Shown in pieces: positions 36,693 to 40,419 of a DNA stretch of 64,000 bases. A program made the translations under genes and the position numbers. How positions within the stretch are numbered: position 1 is the first letter of the stretch; the number at the start of each line of letters is the position of its first letter. The DNA comes from Escherichia phage AV109. The notes under the pieces are model-generated. The model ran no database searches. It was given only the letters and a program-made list of their open reading frames with translations, and had not been told where the DNA came from. The stretch is from sequence record OR352939.1, one strand, 5' to 3'.

Positions 36693-36719
36693 ATATACCT
36701 CTTGGTTAGATATTAGTAT

Positions 36720-37301
36720 TTATAACAACCCTGTCAAATCGTTCCAATGCTTCCGGCATAATGACACGTATCTATCGGTATCACCAATTTCAATTTGACT
36801 GCCATCTGTAATTGGAAGTCCGTCTTCCGTGACTCTAGCTACCATTGTGGCTTTTTTACCGCAATGACAGACACCTTTAAGTTCAACAAGCTTATCGGCA
36901 ATAGCCATTAATGCTTGAGAACCTTCAAATAGATTACCTTTAAAATCCGTTCGTAGTCCATACGCCATTACCGGCACATTGTATACGTCAACAATACGAC
37001 TAAGTTGATACACCTTTTCAGTAGTTAAGAACTGAGCTTCGTCAACAAATACACAATGAATATCCTTTTGTGCTGCAGCCCATTTATAAAATTCAAAGAT
37101 ATCCATGTCTTTTGTAATTATATTGGCGTCCTGACGAATACCAATACGAGAGACTATTTCACCTTTTGAATCGCGAGTATCAATAGCCGGTTTAAGAACT
37201 AATACACCCATGCCACGTTCTTTATAGTTGTGTGCGGCAGTAAGTAATGAAGCAGACTTACCAGCGTTCATAGCGGCATATGTAAAAATTAAACTAGCCA
37301 T
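36720..37301 (-). CDS. tk: thymidine kinase
   Basis: 193 aa; Walker A AAMNAGKS, zinc-binding CHCGKKA...LCRKHW; matches T4 tk. Confidence 0.95.
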   Translation of the reverse strand: MASLIFTYAAMNAGKSASLLTAAHNYKERGMGVLVLKPAIDTRDSKGEIVSRIGIRQDANIITKDMDIFEFYKWAAAQKDIHCVFVDEAQFLTTEKVYQLSRIVDVYNVPVMAYGLRTDFKGNLFEGSQALMAIADKLVELKGVCHCGKKATMVARVTEDGLPITDGSQIEIGDTDRYVSLCRKHWNDLTGLL

Positions 37302-37310
37302 AAGAGTCCC

Positions 37311-37493
37311 TTATAGTGAATTCACGTAGTCAATGAGTTCTTGTTCTTTCCTGTCAAATGATTCCATCAATGCGTGATATTCTTCGTCCGTCAAAGGAGC
37401 ATATTCATCATACGCATTGGTGGCTGCTTGTTCATCCAATAGGTCATGGATAAGTTCGAACAGTTTAGCTTTCTCTTCTTTAGTTAATTTCAT
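37311..37493 (-). CDS. hypothetical acidic protein (60 aa)
   Basis: ORF. Confidence 0.4.
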   Translation of the reverse strand: MKLTKEEKAKLFELIHDLLDEQAATNAYDEYAPLTDEEYHALMESFDRKEQELIDYVNSL

Positions 37494-37984
37494 TTAGGTT
37501 CCCAATCAACAATCACAATTTCTAGTTTAGTGGAATACGTATCTAAAATCTCTTCGATGACATCCCAGTTTCCACCACCAATACCTGCACCAATTCTTGG
37601 CATATAAATTACAGGCTTTGTTATCTTATTCTTTCCGAATTCATTTAATTCTATTATACAATTCATTAAAGCAGAGTACTCAAAATTAGGTCCCGGCTCA
37701 AACTGTGTATAAAGATTAAAGCAATAAGCTTTATGGGTCTTAAAATATTTTTCATAAACCGAATAAGTCCCGAGTTTAGACTTGTCTCCGAATTCGGTTT
37801 GAAGTTTATCGGCTTCCAGAATTTTTGGATAAGCCTTTGCTAATTGTCCTGCCACACCAGCGCCCATTGTATGAAAACAATTACACCCGTGAGCAATATT
37901 ATTACCTTTAGAAAACAGGGCGACAATATCGCCCTTGATATAGTTTTTAATCACTTGCTGCAAGTCCTCTAGTATAAGAGTCAA
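37490..37984 (-). CDS. macro-domain protein (ADP-ribose binding/processing)
   Basis: 164 aa; GNNIAHGCNCFHTMGAGVAGQLAKAYP and GAGIGGGNW motifs typical of macro domains. Confidence 0.7.
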   Translation of the reverse strand: MTLILEDLQQVIKNYIKGDIVALFSKGNNIAHGCNCFHTMGAGVAGQLAKAYPKILEADKLQTEFGDKSKLGTYSVYEKYFKTHKAYCFNLYTQFEPGPNFEYSALMNCIIELNEFGKNKITKPVIYMPRIGAGIGGGNWDVIEEILDTYSTKLEIVIVDWEPK

Positions 37985-38294
37985 CTAGACGGTCCACCAT
38001 AGAATTGCATGCTGCCTTATCTTTAGGTTCCGCCACCGAGCATTCTAATATTTGCCATTTTTTATAGTATCTTTTAATTAAGGTAGATGCCTTGAACCTA
38101 CTAGACACCCCATCTTTTTCTCCGTCTTTATACGCATATAACAATTTTTGTGAAAAATCTACTTTACACTCTCGACTTTTACCACAATAATCAGACGCCG
38201 TTCTGTTTGTATACTCCGTTACATCAGTATATGTAGTATTAGCAAGAGCGTTAAATGAAACCAAGCCAACTATTAAAGCCAACATTTTGGTCAT
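37947..38294 (-). CDS. secreted/periplasmic protein with signal peptide (115 aa)
   Basis: N-terminal MTKMLALIVGLVSFNALA; four Cys. Confidence 0.45.
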   Translation of the reverse strand: MTKMLALIVGLVSFNALANTTYTDVTEYTNRTASDYCGKSRECKVDFSQKLLYAYKDGEKDGVSSRFKASTLIKRYYKKWQILECSVAEPKDKAACNSMVDRLVDSYTRGLAASD

Positions 38295-38833
38295 TCTTTT
38301 ATTTCCAGTAGTTTATTTGATTTAAGGTAATTAGCCTTTTCTAGGACTTCAGAAGCATATTTACTTCCAGCACTTGTCTTCCATCCTGCATTATATGAGG
38401 ATATAGCTTTTCTTATATCCCCATTATGTATATTTAACCAATAAGAAAATTCGATATAAGCCCATCTGGCTGAATTAGACCGCTTAGATAGCATTTTCTT
38501 AATTTGGGCATCAGACATATTATAACCAAGCTGGTTAATTCTTGCCCTCATTGTTGGTAGATAATTTTGGAACATTCCATACGCATGGTGACCTTTCTTA
38601 TCTTTAAGATTAATACCGGCAGATGATTCCTGCCATAGTATTGCGGCCATTATGTATCCAAGTCCTTTCTTATGCATATTTTCATGCGTTTTAAATTTTC
38701 CGTCCTTAGAAAACTGTTCCCCAAACTGATAAGCATAATTCAAGTTATCGAGTTGGACATTACTAAAAGTATGCTCGGAGCTATGTGCTGATAACGAAAG
38801 AGCAAATAGACCAGCGAGTAGTGCTTTTCTCAT
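38291..38833 (-). CDS. secreted lytic-transglycosylase-like protein (SLT-type motifs)
   Basis: Signal peptide MRKALLAGLFALSLSAHS; WQESSAG, GMFQ and SYNAGW resemble SLT catalytic motifs. Confidence 0.5.
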   Translation of the reverse strand: MRKALLAGLFALSLSAHSSEHTFSNVQLDNLNYAYQFGEQFSKDGKFKTHENMHKKGLGYIMAAILWQESSAGINLKDKKGHHAYGMFQNYLPTMRARINQLGYNMSDAQIKKMLSKRSNSARWAYIEFSYWLNIHNGDIRKAISSYNAGWKTSAGSKYASEVLEKANYLKSNKLLEIKE

Positions 38834-38841
38834 GTTTACCT

Positions 38842-39300
38842 CTAGATTTTAATCACTGCTTTAGAAGCTTTTCCTGGTAGTCGTTTACTGTTAATAATAG
38901 CCATTCTACATTGAAGAGTCTTCATTTTGAATGCCGGATTTTCGCGACAAACTGTAAGTCCTAACCAAAGATTTCCGTCAGTTATTTCTAAACGGCCTGG
39001 GCGATATTCGACACCTTCGACAAAATCTTCATCAACATCCGGACGTGCCGGCATTGATAAAAATTCTGCAACTTCTTTAACGTGATTTTTTACTTTATGA
39101 AATAATTCAAAAACGTAATTCTCATCTATTTCTCTCTGGATGGCACGATCTAAGAGATGTTGAGAATACTTGATATGAAAGCCTGGTAGTCCAAGAGACT
39201 TTGCAGCATCTTTTATACCGGCATTTATTTTGCGGAACTCCGTTTCAAAGATTCGACGGAGTTTATTACGGCGGATAAAAACATCCGAATTGATAGTCAT
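38842..39300 (-). CDS. regB: RegB sequence-specific endoribonuclease
   Basis: 152 aa; MTINSDVFIRRNKLRRIFETEFRKINAGIKDAAKSLGLPGFHIKYSQHLLDRAIQREIDENYVFELFHK matches T4 RegB. Confidence 0.92.
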   Translation of the reverse strand: MTINSDVFIRRNKLRRIFETEFRKINAGIKDAAKSLGLPGFHIKYSQHLLDRAIQREIDENYVFELFHKVKNHVKEVAEFLSMPARPDVDEDFVEGVEYRPGRLEITDGNLWLGLTVCRENPAFKMKTLQCRMAIINSKRLPGKASKAVIKI

Positions 39301-39843: not shown

Positions 39844-40057
39844 AAGGAATTTCCTCATCAGTGGCAAGGTCATATTCGACCAATTGGATAGGCTCATTAA
39901 TACCATATCCACGTACAGTGATATCGGTTGACGGATAGTTTCCAGTAATATCACCCATTCTAAATGCTTCAATGAATGATTGCTCGCCTGAGCAACTAAA
40001 CCAGGCGGCAAAACATTTTAAAACATCTTCAGACCCTTCTATAATCAATTTAGCCAT
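39833..40057 (-). CDS. hypothetical acidic protein (74 aa)
   Basis: ORF; start abuts stop of GrcA-like gene. Confidence 0.4.
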   Translation of the reverse strand: MAKLIIEGSEDVLKCFAAWFSCSGEQSFIEAFRMGDITGNYPSTDITVRGYGINEPIQLVEYDLATDEEIPYVD

Positions 40058-40419
40058 TATAGACTCTCAGTAAAGGTACGAGCGATAACGTCGCGCTGCT
40101 GTTCCGGAGTCAGAGAGTTAAAGCGAACTGCATAACCGGATACACGGATGGTCAGCTGCGGATATTTTTCTGGATGCTTAACTGCATCTTCTAGAGTTTC
40201 ACGACGCAGAACGTTAACGTTCAGATGTTGACCACCTTCAATTTTAACTTTAGGTTGATGTTCAATTTCAATTTCACGGGCATTCAAACCGTAGAAAATT
40301 TCCGGGTCTACAATAGCGTCTTCTTTAAAAGTCTTAGAGACAATAATCCGGGCTTGAGTACCGTCTTCAAAATAAATAGTGCCTTTATGTGCACCTTCAA
40401 GAATTTGATATGCTTTCAT
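40057..40419 (-). CDS. autonomous glycyl-radical cofactor GrcA/YfiD-like protein
   Basis: 120 aa; C-terminal [63 protein letters not shown] carries the glycyl-radical RVSGYAV motif and closely matches E. coli GrcA as I recall it. Confidence 0.85.

Follow-up and report, generated by a model that had tools for sequence, protein, structure and literature searches.

The reading frame at positions 37490-37954 on the minus strand of the 64,000-nucleotide window (the whole stretch of Escherichia phage AV109 DNA analysed here) is the Mosigvirus ortholog of the T4 gene tk.4 (adfM), and we put at roughly three in four the probability that this ortholog serves as a counter-defence against DarTG2 by removing ADP-ribose from thymidine (T-ADPr). 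The gene is a known one, ordinary and already described: a macro (A1pp) domain was reported in tk.4 orthologs in 2006, and work on T4 from 2025 gave it a role in counter-defence. Beyond the cited literature, the present analysis offers a modest refinement, namely a glutamine-for-lysine substitution in the apparent active site.

The coding sequence (37490..37954, minus strand) begins with GTG, ends with TGA and encodes 154 amino acids comprising a single macrodomain. These limits follow from alignment with T4, a stop codon in T4, public annotation and a Shine-Dalgarno sequence. The GTG at 37954-37952 aligns exactly with the ATG of T4 tk.4, immediately upstream of which T4 carries an in-frame TAG stop, and the records of RB69, moha and AV114 annotate a 465-nt gene from GTG 37954. 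The Shine-Dalgarno sequence, a GAGGA read from the sequence at 37965..37969 (minus strand), lies 10 nt upstream of the GTG; T4 has the same GAGGA 11 nt before its ATG. At the position equivalent to the GTG, the aligned homologs start with M-I or MxI (a few start later by one or two residues), and an extension upstream of it is missing from all of them. A longer minus-strand frame of 164 amino acids does run from a TTG at 37984 to the stop at 37490, and the preliminary description of this DNA took that TTG as the start; both motifs quoted there, GCNCFHTMGAGVAG and GAGIGGGNW, are found in the translation. The 164-residue reading is rejected on homology to T4 and on the TAG that stands in frame in T4, and the additional segment (37955..37984, minus strand), which in another frame is the 3' coding end of vs, is most likely not part of Tk.4. 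The 38-nt overlap with the upstream gene that had been described is an artefact of choosing the most upstream TTG, and the actual overlap with vs is 8 nt.

That tk.4 is a real gene and not a chance reading frame is indicated by its matches to Pfam Macro, to PHROG 335 and, by tblastn, to other phage genomes. Against Pfam Macro (PF01661), Tk.4 scores 28.2 bits (gathering cut-off 22) over profile positions 2-117 of 118, while the match to PHROG 335 has an E-value of 8e-67. Homologs at E<=1e-3 amount to 394 database proteins, and of 50,697 phage records searched with Tk.4 by tblastn, 2846 contain a match, belonging to phages whose names point to Escherichia, Klebsiella, Salmonella, Pseudomonas, Vibrio, Acinetobacter, Aeromonas and other hosts. 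The RefSeq record of RB69 names the frame tk.4, "phosphatase; contains A1pp phosphatase motif"; in other records it appears as "macro domain protein", "Poa1p-like family protein" or "hypothetical protein".

An AlphaFold2 model of Tk.4, computed from a 46-sequence alignment from which the T4 row was left out, has a pLDDT of 95.5 and a pTM of 0.91 and displays the three-layer alpha/beta/alpha macro fold. In Foldseek, TARG1, Poa1p, BT1257, the DarG macrodomains and SCO6735 come out as the closest experimental structures, each at a probability of 1.0 and with TM-scores of about 0.68-0.81. These nearest structures represent the ALC1/TARG1-like class, and many ADPr-bound macrodomains are likewise matched at a probability of 1.0. 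When the sequences of the PDB are searched, the nearest structures named above come up again and BT1257 is the best match, with E=1.9e-10 for the single sequence and 9.6e-17 for the family profile. Both glycine-rich ADP-ribose loops, MGAGVAG and GAGIGGG, are present. The Pfam and PDB sequence matches, together with the predicted fold, support the assignment of Tk.4 as a macrodomain protein and show the earlier macrodomain reading to have been correct.

The case for counter-defence originates with T4. In a genome-wide transposon-insertion screen, tk.4 was the single gene that turned important on a DarTG2 host, and a clean T4 knockout was sensitised to DarTG2; the evidence is genetic, and the gene was renamed adfM, for anti-DarT factor Macrodomain (preprint 10.1101/2025.11.20.689424). 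T4 without adfA and adfN is still DarTG2-resistant, and a further factor had been predicted. In single-stranded DNA the toxin DarT2 attaches ADP-ribose to thymidine within TNTC motifs, whereby replication is blocked, and DarG-type macrodomains reverse this modification. The use of a macrodomain against DarT2 has a phage precedent in the unrelated PhiKZ gp104, which carries the name AdfM as well: it strips T-ADPr from DNA in vitro and shields PhiKZ against DarTG2 (Cell Rep 2026, PMC13309987). In one review, RB69 is given as a DarTG1 target and T5 and SECphi18 as DarTG2 targets, which fits RB69-type phages that carry a working anti-DarTG2 gene.

The phenotype, which we take from the literature, was reported for T4. 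The T4 and RB69-type proteins are of the same length and 84% identical over 153 amino acids from residue 1, and their genes occupy the same position between vs and tk.2 and share the same start context. Among the 25 substitutions that separate them is one in the second glycine loop, GAGIGKGNW in T4 and GAGIGGGNW in AV109; at this position, residue 127, 110 of 120 family members have Gly and five have Lys. It is the T4 genetics with DarTG2, in conjunction with the DarG and PhiKZ macrodomain precedent, that recommends the same explanation for RB69-type adfM. The preliminary description had proposed two roles, of which countering ADP-ribosylation fits the published genetics of this 84%-identical ortholog; a part in NAD-derived defence signalling finds no support here.

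The product of tk.4, a stand-alone macrodomain of 154 residues made along with the overlapping neighbours vs and tk.2, would most likely have counter-defence against DarTG2-type toxin-antitoxin systems as its job. On infection of a host carrying such a system, DarT2 would ADP-ribosylate thymidines in single-stranded phage DNA, whereupon the macrodomain would bind the ADP-ribose and hydrolyse the ribose-thymine bond, restoring replicable DNA. The chemistry would probably resemble that of SCO6735 rather than that of DarG: Gln84, held by Asn25, would position the distal ribose, and a water molecule held by the backbone would start the reaction.

The residues named in this scheme were located in an alignment of 120 family members, in which H22, G23, N25, C26, G33, A35, D49, G62, N80, Y82, Q84, P119, I121, G122, G124 and W130 are invariant or nearly so. 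The HGCN motif (H22-G23-C24-N25), read from the sequence, is encoded at 37880..37891 (minus strand), and its N25, present in all 119 ungapped homologs, aligns with N22 of DarG, N23 of PhiKZ AdfM and N27 of SCO6735. The Y82-T83-Q84 codons lie at 37703..37711 (minus strand). Profile and MAFFT alignments place Q84, found in 120/120 family sequences, opposite the catalytic lysine of TARG1 (K84), Thermus aquaticus DarG (K80), PhiKZ AdfM (K78) and Mycobacterium tuberculosis DarG, and opposite the essential Gln85 of SCO6735. The DarG/TARG1 catalytic lysine is thus absent from the whole Tk.4 family (Gln in 120/120), and in Tk.4 the Lys84/Asp125 dyad of TARG1 is replaced by Q84 and G126. The latter residue, Ala in most family members, aligns with both TARG1 D125 and Poa1p F152 and falls within the second glycine-rich ADP-ribose/diphosphate loop, G122-A-G-I-G-G-G-N-W130, encoded at 37565..37591 (minus strand). 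For BT1257, which MAFFT misplaced around the Gln motif, profile alignments were used there; for PhiKZ gp104, the placement around the T-K motif was taken from MAFFT, the HMM alignment being unreliable there. Sequences for SCO6735 and BT1257 came from PDB alignments, and the SCO6735 numbering agrees with the published V25, N27, K34, Q85, G87 and K89.

This residue pattern, which the present analysis shows along with the gene's identity, its orthology and its fold, corresponds to that of SCO6735 from Streptomyces coelicolor: H22-G23-C24-N25 of Tk.4 matches H24-V25-C26-N27, N80 matches N81 and Q84 matches Q85. Mutation of the catalytic lysine inactivates DarG, whereas SCO6735, with Gln85 at the lysine position, is efficient at releasing thymidine-linked ADP-ribose from DNA. 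Activity is abolished in its Q85A mutant and nearly abolished in its N27S mutant, which loses the Asn that locks Gln85; the mechanism proposed in the literature employs a water molecule bound by the main chain at residue 25. Because SCO6735 is active with a glutamine at this very position, the missing lysine need not mean a loss of function in the Tk.4 family. The preliminary description had regarded loss of catalytic residues on alignment as evidence against its interpretation: the DarG/TARG1 lysine is indeed gone, but an invariant glutamine equivalent to the essential Gln85 stands in its place.

SCO6735 and BT1257 are Gln-type ALC1-like macrodomains, and both share with Tk.4 an N-terminal H-x-C-N, an N-x-x-x-Q replacing the T-K motif, and a P-R-I-G-x-G-x-x-G-G-x-W loop, although Foldseek identity to Tk.4 is about 27% for BT1257 and 21% for SCO6735. 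They differ from Tk.4 in a central mobile loop that is 5-6 residues longer and that in SCO6735 bears the DNA-binding lysines K89 and K94; SCO6735, moreover, is a cellular protein of DNA damage and antibiotic regulation, not of phage counter-defence. By analogy, Tk.4 would hydrolyse T-ADPr in DNA by the glutamine mechanism, and catalysis by the T4-type protein is likewise proposed. Counting against this explanation are the missing DarG/TARG1 lysine, the missing lysine loop by which SCO6735 binds DNA, a sequence affinity to the phosphatase Poa1p that roughly equals the one to DarG, and the weak matches to DarG models.

The last of these points bears on how Tk.4 should be classified. Against the NCBIfam DarG2 model (NF048014), Tk.4 scores 31.8 bits and does not reach the equivalog cut-off of 250, and with the PADLOC DarG model it obtains 33.3 bits as compared with 133 bits for PhiKZ AdfM. 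Given the 31.8 bits from NCBIfam and 33 bits from PADLOC, we do not file Tk.4 as DarG, membership of which was rejected on these low scores and on the absence of the catalytic lysine in profile and MAFFT alignments. The DarG2 macrodomains of T. aquaticus and M. tuberculosis share the fold (Foldseek probability 1.0, TM about 0.75), the conserved Asn (DarG N22, Tk.4 N25) and the presumed substrate with Tk.4, but they possess the catalytic K80 where Tk.4 has Gln, a C-terminal DarT-binding domain and an adjacent darT, the neighbours of Tk.4 being vs and tk.2. PhiKZ AdfM has in common with the T4 protein its name, its build as a lone phage macrodomain and its action against DarTG2; unlike Tk.4 it is DarG-like, retains the lysine (K78) and belongs to another lineage, with 19% identity to Tk.4. 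The PhiKZ and T4-type AdfM proteins therefore appear, from their sequences, to be independent recruitments.

In its function Tk.4 would resemble DarG, but it seems to belong to a distinct, largely phage-borne clade of Gln-type macrodomains. A more far-reaching proposition, which we regard as evenly poised between true and false, is that the AdfM of T-even and RB69 phages is not a captured DarG but a member of a separate phage-wide clade (marked by HGCNC, NxYTQ and PxIGxGIxGxW) that takes ADP-ribose off DNA by using, on a short-loop scaffold, the lysine-independent Gln/Asn water mechanism so far described only for SCO6735, with anti-DarT2 macrodomains having been recruited at least twice, as the Lys type in PhiKZ and the Gln type in T4. 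If this is true, the Gln type may have a wider substrate range than DarG.

The affinity to Poa1p raises an alternative that we consider unlikely, namely that Tk.4 hydrolyses small-molecule derivatives of ADP-ribose, as a Poa1p-like ADP-ribose-1''-phosphate phosphatase or an O-acetyl-ADP-ribose deacetylase, and clears by-products, toxins or signals that are soluble and derive from NAD. Such an activity is implied by the RefSeq name "phosphatase", and a survey of viral NAD/ADPr systems made the case that the majority of phage macrodomains act on soluble derivatives of ADPr. Yeast Poa1p is, along with human TARG1, a top fold match to Tk.4, and Poa1p structures are also among the best sequence matches; the H-x-C-N-C motif is common to the two proteins. 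Among the residues mutated in deposited Poa1p structures, H23 is kept (as H22), S30 has a similar counterpart (T29) and F152 is lost (G126, with Gly or Ala across the Tk.4 family); the H23A mutant chain scores below the wild type against Tk.4. This loss of F152 speaks against a Poa1p-like activity, as does the invariant Asn/Gln pair, which matches a DNA-ADPr hydrolase. Furthermore, the T4 ortholog has a single reported phenotype, and this is specific to a system that modifies DNA, DarTG2.

Somewhat less probable again is protection without catalysis, in which Tk.4 would act as a stoichiometric inhibitor or reader, either binding and blocking DarT2 or covering ADP-ribosylated DNA. Absence of the DarG/TARG1 catalytic lysine would accord with such a role; dead SCO6735 Q85A still inhibits DarT by interaction, and the anti-DarT factors AdfA and AdfB act by binding. 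Yet the ADP-ribose pocket, made up of H22, N25, N80, Y82, Q84 and both glycine loops, does not vary among 120 homologs, an enzyme-like pattern, while the 154 residues of Tk.4 include no equivalent of the C-terminal DarT-binding domain of DarG, and the isolated DarG macrodomain carrying K80A does not inhibit DarT.

Least probable of all is the erasure of other ADP-ribosylation, be it the phage's own Alt, ModA and ModB marks or the RNA or protein marks of other defences such as CmdT-like toxins; T4-type phages do encode three ADP-ribosyltransferases, the ALC1-like macrodomains TARG1 and SCO6735 also act on protein substrates and the very wide spread of the Tk.4 family in phages fits a broad role, but the Alt and Mod enzymes modify arginine, macrodomains are not known to reverse arginine ADP-ribosylation and nothing links tk.4 to these marks. 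The CmdTAC paper makes no mention of tk.4, and macrodomains occur in it only in the reference list.

Phages with tk.4 are expected to withstand DarTG2 hosts, a point of relevance to host range and to phage therapy. Mechanistic work on Tk.4 should direct mutations to Q84, N25 and H22 and not to a DarG-type lysine. As tk.4 is present in thousands of sequenced phages, its occurrence in AV109 adds little beyond correct annotation; records that now read "phosphatase" or "hypothetical protein" could be renamed adfM-like. The shared AdfM name does invite annotation confusion, T4 Tk.4 and PhiKZ gp104 being only 19% identical.

Over the region 36700-39300, AV109 shares 100% identity with Escherichia phage AV114 and 98.6% with RB69, and by this identity the 64,000-nt window is a segment of a Mosigvirus (RB69-like, Tevenvirinae) genome; the region is matched by 657 phage records. 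Every gene around tk.4 is carried on the minus strand, the order of transcription being regB (38842-39300), vs.1 (38291-38833), vs (37947-38294), tk.4, tk.2 (37311-37493) and tk (36720-37301). The upstream neighbour vs, encoding a valyl-tRNA synthetase modifier, was identified by PHROG 1256 (E=2e-34) and the annotation of RB69, moha and AV114; the downstream neighbour tk.2 is a DUF7438 gene. The end of vs (37947) overlaps the GTG of tk.4 by 8 nt, and the ATG of tk.2 overlaps its TGA by 4 nt (ATGA), arrangements typical of tightly packed T4-type gene clusters. Synteny around tk.4 matches in RB69, T4, fPS-65, fPS-2 and Klebsiella phage EI; T4 has tk.3 and tk.1 nearby, whereas AV109 has neither at that place.

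The upstream gene that had been said to encode a signal-peptide protein is vs, and its product does have a Sec-type signal-like N-terminus. The "SLT-like" secreted protein said to follow corresponds to Vs.1, which scores 18.3 bits against Pfam SLT (threshold 21.3 bits) and is encoded further upstream in the direction of transcription. The signal-like N-termini of Vs and Vs.1 are MTKMLALIVGLVSFNALA/N and MRKALLAGLFALSLSAHS/S. Despite its N-terminus, Vs is annotated as modifying the cytoplasmic valyl-tRNA synthetase, and one Salmonella phage record gives its homolog a signal peptide N-region; in T4, vs matters in minimal medium (preprint 10.1101/2025.11.20.689424). Elsewhere on the minus strand, vs.6 (40057-40419) encodes a stand-alone glycyl-radical cofactor (GrcA-like) protein, annotated in RB69 and T4 as autonomous glycyl radical cofactor GrcA. 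A scan of the region for sigma-70 promoters returned 8 sites as compared with 9.5 expected from shuffled sequence, and hence no enrichment.

Within tk.4, codons 7-15 contain a terminator-like hairpin, AGGGCGAUAUUGUCGCCCU followed by a U-tract (37917..37935, minus strand), with a folding energy of about -13 to -15 kcal/mol and a z-score of about -2.2. It is absent in three other genera, as represented by Klebsiella phages EI and Mexia and Salmonella phage NP4. In the RB49-like phage Sf20 it is retained, with a single change that preserves pairing, and a 26-nt block containing the hairpin is identical, all third codon positions included, in AV109, T4 and the Yersinia phages fPS-65 and fPS-2, in whose records the site is annotated as "terminator". 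The hairpin could dampen transcription that continues from vs into tk.4, make the 3' end of the vs mRNA more stable or mark a recombination boundary.
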